A DNA stretch of 9,005 nt, from IMG/VR virus record IMGVR_UViG_2734482785_000011, positions 1-9,005 of that record, one strand, 5' to 3'. The translations under genes were made by a program, and so were the position numbers. Positions within the stretch are counted from its first letter, which is position 1; each line of letters begins with the position of its first letter. Source of the DNA: a virus (Duplodnaviria > Heunggongvirae > Uroviricota > Caudoviricetes). Shown in pieces: positions 1-9,005 of this stretch. The notes under the pieces were generated by a model, which made no database searches, had not been told where the DNA came from, and saw only the letters and a list, made by a program, of their open reading frames with translations.

Positions 1-473
1 CGATAGGTTGCAACACCAGTTGCACGTTGAGTCATGAACACGTCGGTTTGAGTCCAAGTGTCACCACCGAATTCTGGCAGGACGTCAGTCCACGCACCGA
101 TGTCGTATGCTACACCGTAGTTACGGCCGTAATCGATGGAGCCGTAGTCACCGAATTTCAGGCCAGCGAAGGCAAGACGGGTTTTGTCTTTGGAGGAACC
201 CTGAGATTCAGCGCGGTTGCCTTTGAATTCATATTCCCACTGACCGAAACCAGTCAGTTGATCGTTGATTTGGGTTTCACCTTTGAAGCCAAGACGAGCA
301 TAAGTTTTGTCACCATCGTGCTTATCGTTAGAGGAGAAGTAGTGCTCGGCATTAACTTTTCCATACAGATCCAGTTTGTTGCTGTCTTTGTTATAAATCT
401 CTGCTGCCTGAGCAGACATCGCCATTAATACTGACGCAGCTACAGCAGAGATTGCCACTGTTAATTTTTTCAT
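1..473 (-). CDS. nmpC: General porin of the OmpC/OmpF/PhoE family, N-terminal part only (start codon at 473-471, gene continues past position 1); NmpC/OmpD/Lc-type prophage porin
   Basis: Reverse-complement translation from the ATG at 473-471 gives [48 protein letters not shown]...[25 protein letters not shown]...[59 protein letters not shown]: signal peptide followed by the AEIYNKD mature N-terminus and conserved porin blocks. AGGA Shine-Dalgarno about 8 nt upstream on the minus strand. Symbol assigned from recalled similarity to NmpC, not from a search. Confidence 0.85.
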
Positions 474-716
474 CGTGAATCCTTAGTCCTTTTCGGAACT
501 ATTATTAAAAAATATTGTCACTGCGGCCTAAATATACATCTAATCGGTATGGCTATTTCAAGATACGGGGTTTATTTAATGATTTAGAGTGTGATCAAGA
601 TCTCGTTTATGCGTGGTAATAATTATTGGAGATGTTTTTGTAATGAGAGATGTGTTTCTGAAATGCAATGAAAAGTTATTATTTTTGTATTTTATAATGT
701 AAATTTTGCGTACTGG

Positions 717-730
717 TTTACGTACGTAAA
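717..730. promoter_or_regulatory. Perfect 14-bp palindrome TTTACGTACGTAAA in the divergent porin/small-ORF intergenic region; candidate operator for a dimeric regulator
   Basis: Sequence is its own reverse complement; it lies in a 450 bp AT-rich region between divergently oriented genes, next to a TATAAT hexamer at 693-698. Confidence 0.3.
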
Positions 731-923
731 AATTTAAATATGATGTTAAGAGTGGTCACTTTGCCACACAGCTTAAACCAGCCGCCAAGCGGGGTTTTTT
801 ATGCCCGAAAAGCGGCGCAGTACGTTAAACGCGCTGGTGGTTGCGAATACAGGTCTTTCAGCTTGATGGCTTTTTCGACAAGAGTTATTGGTATGTCACG
901 TTAACCAGAAAAGGGAAAAAGAC

Positions 924-1121
924 ATGCTAAAACAGCAGGATATGACCGAAACTGCCAGAGTGGTGTTTAATGAATTAAGCGTCACCGAACCGGCGACCGT
1001 CGGGGAAATTGCGCAGAATACTTACCTTTCACGCGAACGCTGCCAGTTAATACTGACCCAGCTTGTTATGGCGGGTCTGGCAGATTATCAGTTCGGTTGT
1101 TACAGACGCCTTCCTCAGTGA
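924..1121 (+). CDS. Small hypothetical protein (65 aa) with winged-helix/HTH-like character; alternative TTG start at 888
   Basis: ORF track 888..1121; the ATG at 924 is preceded by AGGGA about 7 nt upstream. Translation MLKQQDMTETARVVFNELSVTEPATVGEIAQNTYLSRERCQLILTQLVMAGLADY has an HTH-like segment (TVGEIAQNTYLSRERCQLIL). The stop codon sits inside a terminator hairpin. Confidence 0.5.
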   Translation: MLKQQDMTETARVVFNELSVTEPATVGEIAQNTYLSRERCQLILTQLVMAGLADYQFGCYRRLPQ

Positions 1122-1131
1122 AGGCTTTTTT
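1108..1131 (+). terminator. Rho-independent terminator (stem GCCTTC/GAAGGC, 6-nt loop, T6 tract) ending the small ORF transcript
   Basis: gccttc ctcagt gaaggc tttttt read directly; it overlaps the TGA stop at 1119-1121. Confidence 0.6.
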
Positions 1132-1271
1132 ATTTGTGGTAATGGGCGGCTGGTGGGTGTTAGCGGCACCTGCCAGCCATCTGCTCATGCGTTGGGGTCA
1201 CAAGCAAACCTCAGGCCCATCTGCTTTGCGCAAAAGCGGAATGAGCCTATCAGAGAAGTGCTTATTGATCT

Positions 1272-2318
1272 ATGGCTAATACTGTAAAAATATCCAGTTG
1301 TGAGTTAATCAACGCTGATTGCCTGGAATTTATCCAGACCTTACCGGAAAACTCTGTCGATCTGATAGTCACGGACCCGCCATACTTTAAAGTGAAGCCC
1401 GAGGGCTGGGATAACCAGTGGAAGGGCGACGATGATTATCTGAAATGGCTGGACCAGTGTCTGGCGCAGTTCTGGCGGGTACTGAAGCCTGCCGGAAGTC
1501 TCTACCTGTTCTGTGGTCATCGCCTGGCATCTGATATCGAAATCATGATGCGTGAGCGCTTTAATGTGCTGAACCACATTATCTGGGCGAAGCCGTCCGG
1601 ACGCTGGAACGGGTGCAACAAGGAAAGCCTTCGGGCGTATTTTCCGGCAACAGAACGCATTCTGTTTGCTGAACATTATCAGGGGCCATATCAGCCCAAA
1701 AATGACGGCTACGCGGCAAAGGGGCGCGAGCTTAAGCAGCACATCATGGCCCCGCTGATTTCTTACTTCCGTGATGCGCGTGAATCACTGGGGATAACGT
1801 CGAAACAGATAGCAGAAGCCACCGGAAAGAAAAACATGGCTTCGCACTGGTTTGGTACCAGTCAGTGGCAGTTACCGAACGAAGCTGATTACAGAAAACT
1901 GCAGGCGTTGTTTGCGCGTATTGCAGCAGAAAAACATCAACGCGGGGAACTGGAAAAGCCACACCACCAGCTGGTCAGCATATATAGTGAACTGAACCGG
2001 CAATATGCCAGCCTGCTGGATGAGTACAAATCTCTGCGGCGTTATTTTTCCGTATCGGCTGCCGTTCCGTATACGGATGTCTGGACGCACAAGCCTGTGC
2101 CGTATTACCCCGGCAAACATCCCTGTGAGAAACCGGCGGATATGTTGCGTCAGATAATTACCGCCAGCAGTCGTCCGGGAGATTTGGTGGCTGATTTTTT
2201 TATGGGGTCAGGCTCAACAATAAAAGCGGCACTTTCACTGGGACGCTGTGCGATTGGCGTGGAGCTGGAAGAAGAGAGATTTAATCAGACTGTGAACGAA
2301 ATAAAAAACTGCTGTTAA
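1272..2318 (+). CDS. DNA methyltransferase, beta-class amino-MTase (probably N6-adenine; N4-cytosine not excluded), 348 aa, no restriction partner in the window
   Basis: DPPY catalytic motif (motif IV) near the N-terminus (LIVTDPPYF) and an FxGxG AdoMet-binding motif (motif I) near the C-terminus (DFFMGSGST). The IV-before-I order defines the beta class. Single ATG start at 1272 (in-frame TGA stop at 1266-1268 just upstream); weak Shine-Dalgarno. Confidence 0.9.
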   Translation: MANTVKISSCELINADCLEFIQTLPENSVDLIVTDPPYFKVKPEGWDNQWKGDDDYLKWLDQCLAQFWRVLKPAGSLYLFCGHRLASDIEIMMRERFNVLNHIIWAKPSGRWNGCNKESLRAYFPATERILFAEHYQGPYQPKNDGYAAKGRELKQHIMAPLISYFRDARESLGITSKQIAEATGKKNMASHWFGTSQWQLPNEADYRKLQALFARIAAEKHQRGELEKPHHQLVSIYSELNRQYASLLDEYKSLRRYFSVSAAVPYTDVWTHKPVPYYPGKHPCEKPADMLRQIITASSRPGDLVADFFMGSGSTIKAALSLGRCAIGVELEEERFNQTVNEIKNCC

Positions 2319-2832
2319 TTTTTATGTTGGTGTTTTCTTTATTCTATAAAAACACAAAACATATACTTATATTTGCAGTAATTGACGCTATTTTTTGTTG
2401 AAAAAATATCCGGGCTTATTAATATCCATTCCCGGTTCCGAGGGAGAATAGGGAAATAATGCATACGTGGTCGTTTTGTTCCTCCTGAGGAACCACTGAC
2501 TAAGCTTTTTATCGTTGTGGCACTGGCGCATTGTTTTTGGCGAGGAAACAGGAGCACATGCTCATTCCGGGCTGTTATGGCCTCAGTGCTTATTTTTGGC
2601 CATCAGAATGGCGCATTGTCGAAAAGAAGTAGCAGGATTTAGCGTTGAGAGGCTGATGATGCGTCATTCTGATGCTGTTGCAGATATAATTTGAGGTGTA
2701 TCCCAGTGCGGGAGTGGCCGGGAATATTTTACGCCGAAGGTCACAACATATTGCTTATTGAGGCAGGTGATATGTTTCGGGAGGCACCCGACACCTCAAA
2801 CCTTATAATGATAGCGTGTTCTTTTAGTCATT

Positions 2833-2857
2833 AACCGCCGTGTCAGGCGGTTTTTTT
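2833..2857 (+). terminator. Strong rho-independent terminator (stem AACCGCC/GGCGGTT, loop GTGTCA, T7 tract); candidate late-operon terminator (tR'-like) or 3' end of an untranslated leader/sRNA
   Basis: aaccgcc gtgtca ggcggtt ttttt read directly. No plus-strand ORF of 60 aa or more in the 500 bp upstream. Confidence 0.6.
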
Positions 2858-3094
2858 ACGCAGCGGTATAAAAATATCATATTTAATAATTTCCAGAGAA
2901 ATAAAATTGTTTGTATATTGTCGGGCATGTGTTACTCGTGCGTGAAAAGTTCGCAAAAAATAAGAACAAAAAGATAAAGTTACATAACTTGACTTGATGC
3001 GTTATTGCTCCTGCATCATTTAACCGTATTATCAAAGGCGGTTCTGAGGGGGGGCACCTGTTCACCGATGATATTGATTCCCTGAAGAACCAAT

Positions 3095-3170
<76 letters not shown>

Positions 3171-3173
3171 TAT

Positions 3174-3248
<75 letters not shown>

Positions 3249-3609
3249 ACAGTAGACGAAATCTGGTTATATTAGGCACTGCACATTGATATGTGGGGCG
3301 TTTTCCTGATTCCTTACCGCGTCCTGTTCTGTAATATGTGATGCAGGTTACAGTCCAGTGCCATTTTTTTACAATAATGGCATGGTGCATTGTCGGTGGA
3401 GATTTTGTATTTCCTGGCAGGGGCCGATGATGCACTATCCCTGTGTTGTAAAATAATACCGCAGAGGTGTTCCTCAGTGCGAGGTGGAGGGAAGAGTCGG
3501 TTTAGCGAGAAAACACAGTACCTGTTATCAGGTCAGATATTTCGGGAGTCCTCCCCTGACACCTTTGTTTTATTACAATAAAAATACCCTATTTTCTGCA
3601 TTGACCAGC

Positions 3610-3630
3610 CGCCACCCAGGCGTTTTTTTT
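3610..3630 (+). terminator. Weak terminator-like hairpin (CGCC/GGCG, 5-nt loop) followed by a T8 tract
   Basis: cgcc accca ggcg tttttttt read directly; the short stem makes this the weakest of the stacked terminators. Confidence 0.35.
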
Positions 3631-3652
3631 ATTCACAATCCTGTTTCTTATG

Positions 3653-3673
3653 GCTCGCTACGGCGAGCTTTTT
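3653..3673 (+). terminator. Rho-independent terminator (stem GCTCGC/GCGAGC, loop TACG, T5 tract)
   Basis: gctcgc tacg gcgagc ttttt read directly. Confidence 0.5.
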
Positions 3674-3760
3674 CATATCTGCGTCACGTCCGGCGTACAT
3701 CGCATCAGATAACACCACACAAAAGGCATCTGCGGGTGTCTTTGACGGGGTGTTTTTTAC

Positions 3761-3782
3761 GGGCCGCTGGTGGCCCTTTTTT
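3761..3782 (+). terminator. Rho-independent terminator (stem GGGCC/GGCCC, loop GCTGGT, T6 tract) about 20 nt upstream of the holin-like gene start
   Basis: gggcc gctggt ggccc tttttt read directly; followed by AGGAG and the ATG at 3802. Confidence 0.6.
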
Positions 3783-3801
3783 ATTTACAGGAGAAAAAAG
3801 T

Positions 3802-4194
3802 ATGTCTGAACCCTTGTCCGGTTCCGGCACGGCTGCGGCGCTCGGCGGGGCGACGGTATTCGGGCTGTTTACCGGAACGGATTTCGGGATTGTGTTTGGT
3901 GCGTTCGCCGGAGCGTTATTTGTGGCAACGATGCCGCAGCAGCTTTCAGCCTGGCGTGTGGCGGCACATTTTCTGGTGTCGTTCATTGTCGGTGTGCTGG
4001 GCGCAGAGGTTCTGGCATCCTGGCTGGTAAAGCATACAGGGTTTGACGGTGCGCCTGTCGACGCACTGTGTGCAGTGCTGGTGTCAGTGGTGTCGGTGAA
4101 GATTCTCTCGTTCATCCACCAGCAGGATATTGCATCACTGGTGTCTGGCCTGTTCTCCCGCCTGCGGGGTGGAGGAGGCGGCAATGTTAAGTAA
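3802..4194 (+). CDS. Putative holin (130 aa, 3-4 predicted transmembrane helices), first gene of the lysis cassette
   Basis: ATG at 3802 preceded by AGGAG at an appropriate spacing. The ORF-track entry 3484..4194 is the same frame with a spurious N-terminal extension. Product MSEPLSGSGTAAALGGATVFGLFTG...VLGAEVLASWLV...ALCAVLVSVVSVKILSF is strongly hydrophobic with a short charged C-terminus, and sits immediately upstream of an endolysin. Confidence 0.6.
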   Translation: MSEPLSGSGTAAALGGATVFGLFTGTDFGIVFGAFAGALFVATMPQQLSAWRVAAHFLVSFIVGVLGAEVLASWLVKHTGFDGAPVDALCAVLVSVVSVKILSFIHQQDIASLVSGLFSRLRGGGGGNVK

Positions 4195-4462
4195 CCTTCC
4201 CGGATTACTGAATGTGGCGTTATGCACGGTTATCGTGCTGACGCTCTTTTTTTATCGTCGCCGTGATTCCAGACATAAACCGCTGATGTCATGGCTGGCC
4301 TGGCTGCTGATGCTGCTGTATGCCTTTGCGCCCCTCAGCTATCTGTGTGGTCGCCCGTTAGCAACGGGCTGGCTGGAAGTGTTTTTTAATCTGCTGTTCT
4401 GCGTGCTGGTGATACGCGCACGCGGGAACGTCACAAAAATCTTTCCATTGTTGAGGCACTGA
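4184..4462 (+). CDS. Small membrane protein (92 aa, 2-3 transmembrane helices); putative second holin, antiholin or lysis-associated protein
   Basis: ATG at 4184 preceded by GGAGGAGG; overlaps the stop of the upstream gene (4192-4194) and ends 1 nt before the endolysin ATG, indicating translational coupling. Product MLSNLPGLLNVALCTVIVLTLFFYRRRDSRHKPLMSWLAWLLMLLYAFAPLSYL... The ORF-track TTG start at 4130 is rejected in favour of the ATG. Confidence 0.55.
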   Translation: MLSNLPGLLNVALCTVIVLTLFFYRRRDSRHKPLMSWLAWLLMLLYAFAPLSYLCGRPLATGWLEVFFNLLFCVLVIRARGNVTKIFPLLRH

Positions 4463-4463
4463 G

Positions 4464-5009
4464 ATGAAATCAAAGGACGTCATTTTTGATGAAATCCTCG
4501 GAAAAGAGGGTGGCTACGTCAATCATCCGGATGATAAAGGCGGGCCGACAAAATGGGGTATTACGGAAAAAGTCGCTCGCGCTCACGGATATCGCGGCGA
4601 TATGCGCGACCTTACACGCGGTCAGGCGCTGGAAATACTCGAGGCGGATTACTGGTTCGGACCACGTTTTGACCAGGTCGCCGCATTATCCCCTGATATT
4701 GCTGCAGAGTTGTGTGATACCGGTGTGAATATGGGGCCGTCCGTAGCATCGAAAATGCTCCAGCGCTGGCTGAACGTTTTCAACCTGCAAGGCAAATTGT
4801 TCCCGGATATGGACGCAGACGGGCGTATCGGCCCCCGCACGATTAATGCACTACGGACTTATCTGCAAAAACGCGGCAAAGACGGCGAACTGGTGATGCT
4901 GAAGGCGCTGAATTGCACGCAGGGTGACCGCTATCTGGAGCTGGCAGAAAAACGCGAGGCCAACGAGTCGTTTGTCTACGGCTGGATGAAAGAGCGCGTA
5001 GCAGTTTAA
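4464..5009 (+). CDS. Endolysin, glycoside hydrolase family 108-type N-terminal domain with a C-terminal peptidoglycan-binding domain (181 aa), no signal peptide
   Basis: N-terminal motif ILGKEGGYVNHPDDKGGPTKWGIT matches the GH108 signature (EGGY catalytic region). C-terminal half (RIGPRTINALRTYLQ...) resembles PG_binding_3 domains. GAGG Shine-Dalgarno 7 nt upstream. Confidence 0.9.
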   Translation: MKSKDVIFDEILGKEGGYVNHPDDKGGPTKWGITEKVARAHGYRGDMRDLTRGQALEILEADYWFGPRFDQVAALSPDIAAELCDTGVNMGPSVASKMLQRWLNVFNLQGKLFPDMDADGRIGPRTINALRTYLQKRGKDGELVMLKALNCTQGDRYLELAEKREANESFVYGWMKERVAV

Positions 5010-5103
5010 AAACTGACGCTGAAGTGCTGAACACCCTCAACTCATGCTGGCTCTTTTCTGGGGCTACGATGAGCGAAAGTAAGGGGCATAGTATCAGATA
5101 GCA

Positions 5104-5141
5104 AAAACCCCGGCTGCGGTAACAGTCCGGGGTTTTCTGTT
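5104..5141 (+). terminator. Rho-independent terminator after the lysis cassette; perfect 10-bp inverted repeat AAAACCCCGG/CCGGGGTTTT flanked by A- and T-tracts (possibly bidirectional)
   Basis: aaaaccccgg (5104-5113) and ccggggtttt (5127-5136) are exact reverse complements; a T-rich tract follows. Confidence 0.6.
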
Positions 5142-5205
5142 TCTGGCCTTGGGTAAGGCAAAGGAGAACATGAGGAAGTATAAACTAATCCTGTTGAGGT
5201 TGACT

Positions 5206-5352
5206 ATGAAAAACGGCCTTGAATTGAAAGCGCCTGTAACTGATGACATCAGCAGAGCGGTGGCTTTTGCCATTAAGTGGGTGGCGGTTGGCATCGCCGT
5301 GTCTCCGATACTGTATGGGCTGGCAAAATTGATTGTTGCTCTGAAATCGTGA
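5206..5352 (+). CDS. Small single-TM peptide (48 aa), hypothetical; paralog of the 5533..5619 peptide
   Basis: ATG at 5206 with GAGG 6 nt upstream (alternative ATG 5170, TTG 5149). Product MKNGLELKAPVTDDISRAVAFAIKWVAVGIAVSPILYGLAKLIVALKS has a C-terminal hydrophobic helix. Confidence 0.4.
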   Translation: MKNGLELKAPVTDDISRAVAFAIKWVAVGIAVSPILYGLAKLIVALKS

Positions 5353-5532
5353 GTGGTGATGGGTGTCATGAGGGACATGGCAACTGATGATAAAAGCAGA
5401 AACAACTCCGCAGGGTGCTGACGATGCTGCAAAAATCATCGCGGTATGTCGGGGAATCAGGTACATACTGACGCCAGTTGCATGGATTATTTGTACCGCA
5501 CTGGTTGCATACACAACAATTTATTTAAACAG

Positions 5533-5619
5533 ATGAGTGCTGATTTTATTCGGGCGGTGGCTTTTGCCATTCGTCTTGTGGCGGTCGCTGTTCTGATTTG
5601 GGCTGTGCGTTGGTGGTGA
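5533..5619 (+). CDS. Small hydrophobic peptide (28 aa from ATG 5533; 57 aa if started at ATG 5446), paralog of the 5206..5352 peptide; possibly a decayed copy
   Basis: Product MSADFIRAVAFAIRLVAVAVLIWAVRWW shares the core RAVAFAI[KR].VAV with the upstream peptide. The 18-nt run gcggtggcttttgccatt is identical at 5257-5274 and 5554-5571. No clear Shine-Dalgarno. Stop TGA at 5617-5619 lies 1 nt before the next ATG. Confidence 0.3.
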   Translation: MSADFIRAVAFAIRLVAVAVLIWAVRWW

Positions 5620-5620
5620 T

Positions 5621-5803
5621 ATGACGCGAAAACACTGGACACACAGAATGCCGCGAACGGCGGCGAAATGGGCACTGGTAGCGATACTGGTGCCTTTTTT
5701 ATTGGTGGGATGCGTCAGTCTGGATAAGGCGCGCCAGCTTTTCGGTACAGCTTCTCAGGTCTGCGAAATTGTTGATAGTGTCCGGCAGTGTATGCAGAAC
5801 TGA
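5621..5803 (+). CDS. Small lipoprotein (60 aa precursor; lipobox LVGC; mature part about 30 aa with three cysteines); alternative start ATG 5648
   Basis: Product MTRKHWTHRMPRTAAKWALVAILVPFLLVGCVSLDKARQLFGTASQVCEIVDSVRQCMQN: positively charged n-region, hydrophobic core, L-V-G-C lipobox. Confidence 0.5.
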   Translation: MTRKHWTHRMPRTAAKWALVAILVPFLLVGCVSLDKARQLFGTASQVCEIVDSVRQCMQN

Positions 5804-5846
5804 CCGACGGTGAGAGCAGAATATTTTTTTAGAGGAGCGAAATTCT

Positions 5847-6197
5847 ATGCCATCACGAATCCCACACGCCTGCCGTAAGCGTGGATGTGCAGGTACAACC
5901 ACAGACAGTTCTGGTTACTGCGATAAACATCGTGGCGAAGGATGGGTACAGCATCAACGCGGACTGAGCCGCCACCAGCGTGGCTATGGCTCGAAATGGG
6001 ATGCCATACGTGCGCGCATACTGAAGCGTGATAATCATCTGTGTCAGAACTGCCTGCGCAATGGGATAGCCGTTGAAGCCAGAACTGTGGACCACATCAT
6101 CCCGAAAGCGCATGGTGGAACAGACGCAGACAGTAACCTGCAGAGTCTGTGCTGGCCCTGCCATAAAGCAAAAACAGCGCGCGAACGCATCAATTGA
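5847..6197 (+). CDS. HNH homing-type endonuclease (116 aa), the packaging-associated HNH protein of HK97-like phages
   Basis: GAGGAG Shine-Dalgarno 9 nt upstream of the ATG at 5847. HNH motif ...TVDHIIPKAHGGTDADSNLQSLCWPCHKAKT plus N-terminal Cys-rich segment CRKRGCAGTTTDSSGYCDKH. Sits immediately upstream of the terminase genes. Confidence 0.9.
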   Translation: MPSRIPHACRKRGCAGTTTDSSGYCDKHRGEGWVQHQRGLSRHQRGYGSKWDAIRARILKRDNHLCQNCLRNGIAVEARTVDHIIPKAHGGTDADSNLQSLCWPCHKAKTARERIN

Positions 6198-6343
6198 TAA
6201 CAGTTCCCATCTGTAGGGGAGGGGCGGGTCAAATCTCTGCAACCCTGGCTGCTCAGTACCGCCGCCTGACCTTTCCTCGCATCGCCGCAGGTTCGAAAAC
6301 TTTTTTTGGAATGTGATTGAATGATTGATAGGTAAAACCGATT
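6198..6343. other. Probable cos (cohesive end/packaging initiation) region between the HNH gene and the terminase small subunit
   Basis: Position only: in HK97-like phages cos lies between the HNH gene (right genome end) and TerS (left genome end). The 146 bp non-coding interval contains a G-rich segment gtaggggaggggcgggtc. The exact cosN cannot be defined from sequence alone. Confidence 0.3.
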
Positions 6344-6826
6344 ATGTCAGGACCCCCGAAAACCCCGCCACGCCTGCATTTGATACGAGGCAACCCCTCA
6401 AAGCGCCCCGTTAAAGACCCAAAAAAAACCGCTAAAAAGGATGAAAAAGGTCTCCCTAAAATTCCGCAACATTTAGGGTCGCAGGGGAAGTACTGGTTCA
6501 GGCGAATGGCGGAAGAACTGAATGCGGAAGGGATCATTTCTCAGCTTGATGCGCGTGCACTCGAGTTACTGGTGGAAGCCTACACCGAATACCGGCATCA
6601 CTGCGAAACACTTGATGCTGAGGGTTATACCTACCGCACGGAAACGCAGAACGGTGATGTGCTGATTAAGGCACACCCGGCTGCTGCGATGAAAGCGGAT
6701 GCCTGGAAGCGGATCCGGGCGATGCTTGCAGAGTTTGGTATGTCACCGGCAAGCCGGGCTAAAGTAAATACCGCCGGACCGGATGATGTTGATCCGCTGG
6801 CGGAGCTTTTAAAAGCGAGAGACTGA
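6344..6826 (+). CDS. Terminase small subunit, P27 family (160 aa)
   Basis: Product MSGPPKTPPRLHLIRGNPSKRP... with basic N-terminus and conserved LHLIRGNPSKR-type motif typical of P27-family TerS. Its stop overlaps the TerL start (TGATG). Confidence 0.85.
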   Translation: MSGPPKTPPRLHLIRGNPSKRPVKDPKKTAKKDEKGLPKIPQHLGSQGKYWFRRMAEELNAEGIISQLDARALELLVEAYTEYRHHCETLDAEGYTYRTETQNGDVLIKAHPAAAMKADAWKRIRAMLAEFGMSPASRAKVNTAGPDDVDPLAELLKARD

Positions 6827-8583
6827 TGGCAAAAGTGGCTGACGGGATCCGCTACGCCGAACGTGTTGTTGCAGGAGAAATTGTCGCTGGCGAATTTGTC
6901 CGTCTGGCCTGCCAGCGTTTTCTTGATGATCTGAAGTACGGCGAAGAGCGGGGGATTTATTTCAGTGAACCTCGTGCGCAGCACATCCTGAATTTCTACA
7001 AATTTGTGCCCCATGTGAAAGGGGCGCTGGCAGGCCAGCCCATTGAACTGATGGACTGGCATGTATTTATCCTCATTAATATTTTTGGTTTTGTCATTCC
7101 GCTGGTGAATGAAGAGACCGGGGAAGTTGTCATGCGCAGCGATGGCAGCGGACGCCCGGTGATGGTGCGCCGGTTCCGGACGGCGTACAACGAAGTCGCC
7201 CGTAAAAACGCAAAATCAACCCTGTCATCGGGTATCGGTCTGTATATGACGGGGGCAGATGGTGAAGGCGGGGCTGAGGTGTATTCAGCCGCAACCACGC
7301 GTGACCAGGCCAGAATCGTGTTTGAAGACGCCAAAAATATGGTCAGAAAAGCCCGGTCGACACTCGGGCGCTTGTTTGATTTCAACAAGCTGGCGATTTA
7401 CCAGGAGCAGAGCGCATCAAAATTTGAACCGCTTTCCTCGGATGCAAACAACCTGGACGGTCTGAACATCCACTGCGCCATTATTGATGAGCTGCATGCA
7501 CATAAAACCCGCGACGTGTGGGACGTTCTGGAAACGGCAACCGGTGCCCGTCTGCAGTCCCTGTTATTTGGTATCACCACGGCGGGCTTTAACAAGGAAG
7601 GGATTTGTTACGAGCAGCGCGATTACGCCATTAAGGTATTGCGAGGCTATAACAGCGACGTGGAGGGCGCGGTAAAAGACGACTCCTACTTTGCGATCAT
7701 TTACACGCTCGATGAGGGAGATGATCCGTTTGATGAAACGGTCTGGCAGAAAGCGAATCCGGGCCTGGGCATCTGTAAACGCTGGGATGATCTGCGTCGT
7801 CTGGCGAAAAAAGCGAAGGAGCAGGTCTCTGCGCGGGTGAATTTTTTCACAAAACACATGAATGTGTGGGTAACAGCAGAGTCTGCCTGGATGGACATGA
7901 TTAAGTGGGAGAAGTGCGAATACATTGCCCCACGACATGAGCTGAAAACGTATCCCATGTGGGTAGGCGTTGACCTTGCTCATAAGATTGATATCTGTGC
8001 GGCGGCAAAACTCTGGCGAACCGATAACGGGCATGTTCATGCCGATTTTAAATTCTGGCTTCCGGAAGGACGGCTGGAACGATGCTCGCGGCAGCAGGCA
8101 GAACTTTACCGGAAGTGGTCGGAGATGGATAAGCTGATTCTGACGGATGGTGATGTTATCGATCATGCTCAGATAAAAAGTGACTTACTGGAATGGATTG
8201 GCGGTGAAAACCTCAGGGAACTGGGATTTGACCCGTGGAGCGCGATGCAGTTCAGCCTGGCACTGGCTGAAGAAGGGATACCGCTGGTGGAGGTTCCGCA
8301 GACGGTCCGCAATCTGTCAGAGGCCATGAAGGAAACGGAATCACTGGTCTATGCCGGGCGTTTCCATCACAGCAATCATCCGGTCATGAACTGGATGATG
8401 TCTAACGTTACGGTAAAACCGGACAAAAACGACAACATCTTCCCGAATAAATCCACGCCTGAAGCCAAAATCGACGGCCCTGTTGCGATGTTTACAGCAA
8501 TGAGCCGGATGCTGGTCAATGGCGGTGAACCGGAGCCGGATCTGTCTGAACACCTGATCAGTGTTGGTATCCGCTCGCTTTAA
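6826..8583 (+). CDS. Terminase large subunit (585 aa), Terminase_1 / HK97-like family
   Basis: ATPase-domain blocks [18 protein letters not shown] and [21 protein letters not shown], and DELH (Walker B-like) in [18 protein letters not shown]; size and position between TerS and portal. Confidence 0.95.
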
Positions 8584-8594
8584 CCGAGGGCATT

Positions 8595-8777
8595 ATGTTT
8601 CTGATAATTCTCACGCCACTGGTGGGCGTGCTGGGGGCGCTTTTGCTGTCGTATGGCACATGGCTGATTTATCCCCCGGCAGGTTTTGTTGTTGCCGGGG
8701 CGCTGTGTCTGTGCTGGTCGTGGCTGGTTGCGCGTTATCTCGATCGCGGTCACCGGGTTGCCTCCGGAGGTGAGTAA
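8595..8777 (+). CDS. Small membrane protein (60 aa, two predicted TM helices) between TerL and portal; hypothetical
   Basis: ATG at 8595 with GAGGG 4-5 nt upstream; product [60 protein letters not shown]. Its TAA stop overlaps the portal ATG (TAATG at 8775-8779). Confidence 0.45.
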
Positions 8778-9005
8778 TGTTTTTCCTGGGGCTTTTTCAA
8801 CGCAAAAATAACACCCCCGTCACAACGCCCGGGATGCTTGCGGAAGAACTTGGATTGTCATACGACACCTATACCGGAAAGCGGATCAGCAGCCAGCGGG
8901 CCATGCGGCTGACGGCGGTGTATTCCTGCGTCAGGGTGCTGGCGGAGTCTGTTGGTATGCTGCCCTGCAGCCTCTACAAAATCACCGGCACCCTTAAAAC
9001 ACGGG
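8777..9005 (+). CDS. Portal protein, HK97 family, N-terminal part (gene continues beyond the window end)
   Basis: Translation [71 protein letters not shown]... matches the conserved N-terminal region of HK97-type portals (AMRLxAVYxCVRxLxESVxxLP). Confidence 0.85.
   Translation, partial: MFFLGLFQRKNNTPVTTPGMLAEELGLSYDTYTGKRISSQRAMRLTAVYSCVRVLAESVGMLPCSLYKITGTLKTR

Follow-up and report, generated by a model that had tools for sequence, protein, structure and literature searches.

How a phage breaches the outer membrane when it carries no recognizable spanins is an open question in phage lysis, and disruptin is, to our knowledge, the sole alternative to spanins demonstrated so far. The phiP27-type lysis cassette serves toxin-converting phages (Stx2e, Stx2k, and LT-II), in which lysis governs toxin release. 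In the spanin survey of Kongari et al. 2018 (PMC6139136), phiP27 was listed as a singleton "separated" two-component spanin and not among the spanin-less phages, with an i-spanin at 20348–20542 (64 aa), an o-spanin at 20706–20861 (51 aa, mature 30 aa), and a summed periplasmic length of 62 residues, the shortest of the survey. Here we analyze positions 1 to 9,005 of the viral record IMGVR_UViG_2734482785_000011 (hereafter the window, 9,005 nucleotides), which is the late region of a temperate phage or prophage of Enterobacteriaceae resembling phiP27. Its lysis module is the already known and common phiP27-type cassette. What the analysis adds is a conserved candidate for the outer-membrane function, lipo60, a small lipoprotein gene that lies past position 5141, where a first-pass annotation of this DNA had ended the cassette. 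This narrows the missing function to one specific, conserved, and uncharacterized 183-bp gene in a genetically easy host, and it corrects a published spanin catalog entry as well as several annotations that miss lipo60 or use the wrong frame.

The nearest phage record to the window was Stx2e phage phiP27 (NC_003356), with 91% nucleotide identity over half of positions 3600–6300 and a mosaic relationship over the remainder. Gene order in the phiP27 lysis module (L28–L30 plus an unannotated lipoprotein gene at 20679–20861) was identical to that in the window, with identities of 96% for holin1, 99% for holin2, and 90% for the lipoprotein, and both modules were followed by HNH and P27-type terminase genes. 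The two differed in the endolysin, an M15 peptidase in phiP27 and a GH108 enzyme in the window, and in the DNA separating endolysin from lipoprotein. They also differed upstream of the holins, where phiP27 carries stx2e and the window has only tRNA-Thr and tRNA-Gly followed by an empty spacer. phiSTEC1575-Stx2k and the LT-II prophages were further relatives of this module. No complete E. coli genome matched 3600–6300 above ~92% identity across 85% of its length. With holin2 as the marker, the cassette was present in 361 of 5426 complete E. coli genomes (~7%), and besides E. coli it was seen in Salmonella, Citrobacter, Yersinia, and Cronobacter.

Linkage of lipo60 to the cassette was assessed in 80 viral-contig loci seeded with holin2, 79 further loci seeded with lipo60, and contigs with divergent members from Yersinia, Cronobacter, Salmonella, Raoultella, and metagenomes. 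Together these gave 146 non-redundant loci with a complete endolysin, for which counts were corrected by hand. An intact lipo60 followed the endolysin in ~129 of them (~90%); 116 of the intact copies were exactly 60 codons long and ~13 had slightly altered C-termini. Another ~9 loci had a damaged copy, and a single locus had Rz/Rz1 in place of lipo60. None of the lipo60-seeded loci had a different lysis-gene context: holin1-holin2-endolysin lay upstream, as far as the contig extended, in all except two short ones starting at smallA, a small transmembrane (TM) protein gene described below. The two genes were recovered in similar numbers, with 288 holin2 and 286 lipo60 stretches in IMG/VR, and with holin2 in 361 complete E. 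coli genomes (638 places) and lipo60 in 359 (556 places).

The neighbors of lipo60 varied on both sides. The endolysin ahead of it was GH108, M15_4, or a probable CHAP enzyme (the last in one contig-end fragment), and the modules after it included at least four kinds of packaging genes (HK97/P27-type, lambda Nu1/A-type, Terminase_6, and Terminase_2). Between Yersinia and the window the holins were 26–30% identical and lipo60 77%. In five loci, with cases in Yersinia, Salmonella, and a metagenome contig, the endolysin-lipo60 gap was -4 nt (overlapping ATGA); it was 14 nt in 35 loci, and the remaining loci had 200–1000 bp of varied DNA between the two genes, a class to which the window belongs (~610 bp). 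On this distribution, lipo60 is a conserved fourth gene of the cassette. The first-pass annotation had closed the cassette with a terminator at 5104–5141; that hairpin is real (~5103–5145), but the cassette continues beyond it to lipo60.

A lipobox scan of all possible start codons on both strands of 3700–6300 left one plausible open reading frame (ORF), 5621/5648–5803; two minus-strand matches were implausible. The "downstream lipoprotein cluster" proposed in the first pass for 5149–5803 contains only this one lipoprotein, the other ORFs there encoding small proteins with a C-terminal TM segment. An embedded lipoprotein ORF in 4184–5009, which the same annotation had named as one finding that would overturn its view of the cassette, was absent, as was any such ORF within 3802–5141. 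The lipobox of lipo60 is LVG/C at residues 28–31, with Cys31 as the lipidated residue, and residue +2 is Val, Ala, or Thr and not Asp, which predicts sorting to the outer membrane. A single hydrophobic segment (residues 13–37) was detected, that of the signal peptide. The mature part has 30 residues, no hydrophobic segment, two conserved cysteines (Cys48 and Cys57), zero net charge (3 K/R, 3 D/E), and a heptad-like hydrophobic stripe with moderate amphipathicity (muH ~0.3). AlphaFold2 returned the monomer as one long helix at modest confidence (pLDDT 70), and Jpred results in the supplementary data of PMC6139136 gave 83% helix for the mature peptide. We therefore regard the mature part, with modest confidence, as helical by prediction; the AlphaFold2 monomer is uninformative on mechanism.

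lipo60 is under purifying selection: across 73 distinct alleles dN/dS was 0.23, falling to 0.19 for the mature part. The lipobox cysteine was kept in 72/73 alleles, Cys48 in 73/73, and Cys57 in 72/73. Nine residues apart on the predicted helix, Cys48 and Cys57 would seem to suit disulfides between molecules better than disulfides within one. The first ATG was invariant (73/73 alleles) and residues 2–9 were conserved, which makes the 60-residue form the likely product; the internal ATG used as the start by Kongari et al. 2018 was present in just 65/73. The 60-residue form has an unusually long basic n-region. At 90% identity the family comprised 151 clusters and was confined to Enterobacteriaceae. 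When 1.84 billion representative proteins were searched exhaustively with a profile, it was recovered as just 25 clusters at 50% identity, and the clearly significant full-length matches in that search were all small prolipoproteins or lipo60-family fragments and fusions, with none to a spanin family. A divergent subfamily retained the lipobox and the two cysteines. The sole family match of lipo60 was PHROG 7528 (unknown function).

The window has no Rz/Rz1 pair, as the first-pass annotation had stated. None of its proteins matched Pfam Rz (PF03245) or Rz1 (PF06085) at E <= 1, in a scan for which the pair in one related locus (L086) served as positive control and matched both strongly (Rz to PF03245 at E = 3e-35, embedded Rz1 to PF06085 at E = 2e-20). 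Nor did any ORF across 3700–6300 combine an N-terminal transmembrane domain (TMD) with a usefully long periplasmic domain after it, as in a type II i-spanin. The control locus is itself a variant of the cassette, in which holin1-holin2-M15 is followed by Rz 15 nt past the M15 stop, next to the 14 nt at which lipo60 follows the stop in 35 loci. The same M15-Rz junction occurred in two complete E. coli genomes, and the small TM insert that precedes lipo60 in the window lies between the endolysin (R) and Rz in the Stx-type phages GER2 and PhiR5_2. The replacement and the shared insert position indicate that, in independent rearrangements, lipo60 and Rz/Rz1 have taken one and the same slot.

These comparisons also bear on the phiP27 catalog entry. 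Its o-spanin is the lipo60 ortholog, 90% identical to window 5621–5803, and Kongari et al. thus chose the same gene independently. The i-spanin (20348–20542) was rejected. Its ORF starts at a TTG and runs antisense to a well-formed, conserved 90-aa gene; in relatives diverged to 44–46% protein identity that gene is full-length and the "i-spanin" ORF only 36 aa. Nor can it serve as a template for a partner in the window, as its DNA is missing there and from most related loci. With the i-spanin an unconserved antisense ORF, lipo60 is left without a recognizable partner, and the published two-component annotation for the phiP27 family is half wrong. In the whole phiP27 genome the only other credible lipobox ORF was a 275-aa early-region protein, besides two short chance ORFs. 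Other candidates for a periplasm-spanning partner were likewise rejected. Holin1 and holin2 have no extramembrane domain. The small TM proteins of the insert carry their TMD at the extreme C-terminus and so lack a periplasmic domain; they are missing from the compact cassettes and coexist with a genuine Rz in GER2 and PhiR5_2. A literature search returned nothing relevant on experiments with orphan o-spanins or with the phiP27-type cassette; the UE-M6 GH108 paper describes a different cassette, with an Rz-like spanin. RefSeq gene L32 of phiP27 (20630–20785) is a wrong-frame call over the lipoprotein gene at 20679–20861. lipo60 is unannotated in "Actinobacillus phage vB_Apl-pPE4" (PP818812.1), and a degenerate remnant in GER2 is likewise unannotated (MG710528.1).

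Judged by its features, lipo60 fits no defined class of outer-membrane lysis protein. Like the o-spanin of two-component systems (lambda Rz/Rz1 and the "separated" class of PMC6139136), it is the last gene of the lysis cassette, has an outer-membrane lipoprotein signal and cysteines in its mature part, and occupies a position interchangeable with real Rz/Rz1. The o-spanin signal is present, but the cassette has no i-spanin gene and lipo60 belongs to no spanin family. Compared with Rz1, its mature part is only 30 residues, predicted to be helical and not proline-rich, and without similarity to any Rz1 family. With the unimolecular spanin T1 gp11 it shares an N-terminal lipoprotein signal and the arrangement of a single gene ending the lysis cassette, but its length falls far short and no transmembrane domain follows at the C-terminus. 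In function, the closest analogy is with the colicin lysis, or bacteriocin release, lipoproteins (PF02402). These have a precursor of ~45–60 aa, a mature part of ~28–35 aa, and an unusually conserved signal peptide, and they act alone, without a membrane-spanning partner, in permeabilizing the outer membrane. The size and lipobox of lipo60 fit this group, and the missing partner gene suggests that it too may act without one. It differs in lying in a phage late operon and not a colicin operon and in its helical, Cys-containing mature peptide, and a Pfam scan gave no match to Lysis_col (PF02402) at E <= 1. Disruptin (phage phiKT gp28), as described in its preprint (bioRxiv 10.1101/515445), is the outer-membrane disruptor of a spanin-less coliphage, resembles a cationic antimicrobial peptide, and replaces spanins. 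On that description both it and lipo60 are short single polypeptides in cassettes without spanins, but lipo60 is a lipoprotein whose mature net charge is 0 and is not a cationic amphipathic peptide of the kind described there.

The rest of the cassette largely agreed with the first-pass annotation, which had described two overlapping membrane-protein genes ahead of a GH108-like endolysin. Holin1 matched Phage_holin_8 (PF16931; E = 3.9e-23, 82.3 bits, gathering cut-off 26.4) and PHROG 198, labelled "holin", and was the first cassette gene in all related loci. Holin2 matched Phage_holin_3_7 (PF05449; E = 6.2e-22, 77.9 bits, cut-off 25.4) and PHROG 217, also labelled "holin". Their ORFs overlap by 11 nt. 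Both Pfam families carry the label "putative", and a literature search found no experimental paper on either. Hydrophobicity and lipobox scans showed both proteins to be nearly all transmembrane with short loops, and without a lipobox or a periplasmic domain. The first pass had named the 92-aa product, alongside the downstream lipoprotein and a gene outside the window, as a possible supplier of the outer-membrane function, and its assignment to a known unimolecular spanin as a second finding that would overturn its view. The product is a Phage_holin_3_7 member and not a unimolecular spanin. It is very improbable as the supplier, and the lipoprotein is now the best candidate. The endolysin had the expected EGGY motif (residues 15–18) and C-terminal peptidoglycan-binding domain, with Glyco_hydro_108 (PF05838, E = 5e-26) and PG_binding_3 (PF09374, E = 1e-25) both above threshold. 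Its ORF begins 1 nt past the holin2 stop. It has no hydrophobic segment and no signal or signal-arrest-release sequence, which indicates a soluble enzyme dependent on a hole-forming holin. GH108/PG_binding_3 endolysins are common and unremarkable, and many sister cassettes have an M15 peptidase instead.

Position, linkage, and selection together make a case, evenly balanced in our judgment, that lipo60 is the outer-membrane factor of the cassette or an essential helper. Holin1 and holin2, one presumably the holin and the other a second holin or regulator, would permeabilize the inner membrane, and the resulting holes would release the soluble GH108/PG_binding_3 muramidase, a step suggested by their family membership. 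In ancestral compact cassettes lipo60 would have been translationally coupled to the endolysin, and in the window it would be expressed through Q-antiterminated late transcription passing the terminators. Once lipidated and sorted by the Lol system, the lipo60 product would be a helical lipopeptide of 30 residues, with two conserved cysteines, lodged in the inner leaflet of the outer membrane, where it would carry out or assist disruption. Canonical spanin bridging across the periplasm is unlikely, because no i-spanin partner is encoded and 30 residues (a ~4.5 nm helix) cannot span it. A stand-alone mode is more plausible. lipo60 might destabilize the outer membrane directly, like the small colicin-release lipoproteins, or form a homotypic complex between the unprocessed, inner-membrane-anchored precursor and the mature outer-membrane form; it might also work with an unrecognized partner. 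It is conceivable, if doubtful, that lipo60 adds a third type of outer-membrane lysis factor to the two known from phages, spanins and disruptin: a stand-alone, anchored lipopeptide of ~30 residues that would destabilize the membrane after loss of the wall, either in the colicin-release manner or via precursor/mature complexes, with an internal hairpin restricting its expression to Q-antiterminated late transcription.

Several observations weigh against such a role. A function of lipo60 in lysis at the outer membrane is what we infer for a family whose database names are all "hypothetical" or "lipoprotein" and for which searches of Pfam, NCBIfam, PADLOC, and PDB sequences gave no match. The mature peptide, neutral and moderately amphipathic, is not disruptin-like. 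In the window a strong terminator and the internal hairpin both precede the coding body of lipo60 after the endolysin. Five of the 146 loci had neither lipo60 nor any lipoprotein within 3 kb, and the gene is dispensable at least there; in the widespread LT-II prophage lineage it is a pseudogene (an 8-nt deletion, in some copies with a stop as well) beside intact holins and endolysin; and GER2 carries its degenerate copy behind a complete S-R-Rz cassette. Tight linkage would be equally expected of a moron beside the lysis genes. Morons classically occupy the region between lysis and packaging genes, and bor in lambda is one sitting by the lysis genes. The moron site, the five loci, the LT-II decay, and the GER2 remnant would suit a cassette that is truly spanin-less, with lipo60 an accessory lipoprotein (lysogenic conversion, superinfection exclusion, or lysis timing; cf. 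Bor/Cor) and rupture either passive, by shear or osmotic force, or host-supplied, an account that we consider unlikely although it deserves serious weight. It is in keeping with a gap between lysis and packaging that in relatives carries toxin genes (stx2e, LT-II, and pertussis-like) along with various small ones, with the separate regulation suggested by the terminator-like element of lipo60 itself, and with the ~13% of Gram-negative-host phages in which PMC6139136 identified no spanin. It sits poorly with the compact cassettes, where the lipo60 start overlaps the endolysin stop as in co-translated partners and unlike an independently regulated moron, and with the constant late-strand orientation of lipo60, which in the window has no promoter-like site directly upstream. 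lipo60 is moreover kept whichever of three endolysin types precedes it and in front of at least four packaging modules, Rz/Rz1 substitutes for it at the equivalent position in L086, and it has no PADLOC match. Prophages decay, and in the laboratory spanin function is conditional; on both counts the counter-evidence from LT-II decay, the five loci, and the GER2 remnant loses weight, without being removed. Should lipo60 prove to be a moron, the cassette would join the truly spanin-less set, and the question would become how such phages escape.

Two further accounts are much less probable. lipo60 could be a conventional o-spanin with a conventional i-spanin, as in the entry of Kongari et al. 2018, the i-spanin of the window having been overlooked. 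The published entry itself speaks for this very unlikely arrangement, as do the location of lipo60 in the spanin slot, its outer-membrane lipoprotein signal, and its conserved cysteines, which are reminiscent of disulfide-linked Rz1. The proposed phiP27 partner is, however, antisense, unconserved, and missing from the window and most loci, and 3700–6300 holds neither an i-spanin-like ORF nor a Pfam Rz/Rz1 match. The loci with a 14-nt gap leave no room for a partner, with HNH within ~45 nt in some (L012, L017) and other modules elsewhere, and the 62-residue periplasmic sum was already an extreme outlier in PMC6139136. Similarly improbable would be that a holin or the endolysin itself disrupts the outer membrane, for instance through action of the 92-aa protein beyond the inner membrane or through an amphipathic endolysin tail, and that lipo60 is irrelevant. 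The cassette does encode two membrane proteins where one holin would suffice, the pair is co-conserved even at 26–30% identity, and PMC6139136 discusses membrane-active endolysins in connection with phages that lack spanins. Yet both holins are almost wholly transmembrane, without a lipobox or periplasmic domain, the endolysin termini are neither hydrophobic nor strongly cationic, and one holin pair occurs with unrelated GH108 and M15 enzymes, so that the function cannot reside in a particular endolysin tail.

The hairpin within the signal-peptide codons of lipo60 (Table 1) is followed by a U-run and had a folding energy of dG = -22 kcal/mol (z = -4.0). Its stem, GGCACTGGTA/TACTGGTGCC, was identical in E. 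coli, Yersinia, Cronobacter, Salmonella, and the divergent subfamily, with variation confined to the loop. Synonymous diversity was 0.117 in the hairpin segment vs 0.253 in the mature part, and the rare Ile codon ATA in this segment was present in 73/73 alleles. The invariant stem, low synonymous diversity, and fixed ATA suggest that nucleotide-level constraint may explain the invariant signal peptide. In three related loci the T-run of the hairpin was frameshifted. An attractive possibility is that this internal hairpin acts as an attenuator passed only by Q-modified polymerase.

In the window lipo60 appears to have been displaced downstream by a ~610-bp mobile insert comprising a terminator and small TM-protein genes. 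The intrinsic-terminator-like hairpin at its 5' edge had dG = -27.3 kcal/mol (z = -5.1), and 0/200 shuffles folded equally well. smallA is preceded by an AAGGAG ribosome-binding site, and its gene recurs in PhiR5_2, where it separates S-R from Rz, and in a Cronobacter locus (L091), where it separates GH108 from lipo60. The longer ORF of the partial second copy begins at 5446, and its PHROG 4493 match is restricted to residues 30–57. Its stop lies 1 nt ahead of the lipo60 ATG, and the same junction recurs in phiSTEC1575-Stx2k and many further loci. Members of this small TM-protein family (PHROG 1115/4493/3246) were also found at L006 2130–2282, L185 3043–3225, and L091 4662–4996. Low-complexity filtering left a tblastn search of phages with the small TM protein largely ineffective. 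These genes look like a mobile insert aimed at the endolysin/spanin junction, or else an unknown lysis accessory. In LT-II enterotoxin prophages of E. coli (L093–L097, ~6730–6900), the toxin genes follow the GH108 endolysin and precede the small TM gene.

Table 1 Features of the window, with positions, strand, and basis of each call.
Feature	Position	Strand	Basis
DNA methyltransferase	1272–2318		Pfam scan and ORF list
tRNA-Thr, tRNA-Gly	3095–3170, 3174–3248		
Lysis genes	3802–5009		ORF list and Pfam
holin1, 130 aa, Phage_holin_8 membrane protein	3802–4194	+	PF16931, PHROG 198, 3–4 hydrophobic segments
holin2, 92 aa, Phage_holin_3_7	4184–4462	+	PF05449, PHROG 217, three hydrophobic segments
Soluble endolysin, GH108 muramidase with PG_binding_3, 181 aa	4464–5009	+	PF05838, PF09374
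Intrinsic-terminator-like hairpin and U-run, 5' edge of insert	5103–5145	+	Folding
Small-ORF cluster	5149–5803		ORF list
smallA, 60 aa, C-terminal TM segment	5170–5352	+	PHROG 1115/4493/3246 (function unknown)
49-aa ORF, one hydrophobic segment, coding status uncertain	5387–5536	+	ORF list, no family match
Partial second small TM-protein gene, 28 codons from ATG 5534	5534–5619	+	PHROG 4493
lipo60, 60-aa predicted prolipoprotein, conserved fourth cassette gene	5621–5803	+	Sole credible lipobox ORF in 3700–6300
Hairpin and U-run within lipo60 signal-peptide codons (~17–29)	5669–5705	+	Terminator scan
HNH endonuclease	5847–6197		ORF list and Pfam
Small terminase, P27-type	6344–6826		ORF list and Pfam
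Large terminase	6826–8583		ORF list

Elsewhere in the window, region 3095–3801 has, after tRNA-Thr and tRNA-Gly, ~550 bp free of genes with two terminator-like hairpins (3652–3669 and 3761–3776). The slot directly upstream of holin1, empty here, is occupied by stx2e in phiP27 and by pertussis-toxin-like genes in Cronobacter, Raoultella, and LT-II prophages. The large terminase is separated from the portal gene by a 60-aa ORF (8595–8777), with two hydrophobic segments, that appears by position and size to match the phiP27 L37 "membrane protein".

Two database records carrying the cassette were unexpected. vB_Apl-pPE4 (L007) has it with proteins 81–96% identical to those of the E. coli cassettes (holin1 81%, holin2 90%, M15 endolysin 96%, lipo60 92%), which is surprising in a Pasteurellaceae phage, and its host assignment may need checking. 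NZ_CP026085.1, labelled E. coli DH5alpha, contains holin2 at 98.9% identity, which is unexpected in a K-12 derivative and may reflect mislabelling or contamination of the assembly.

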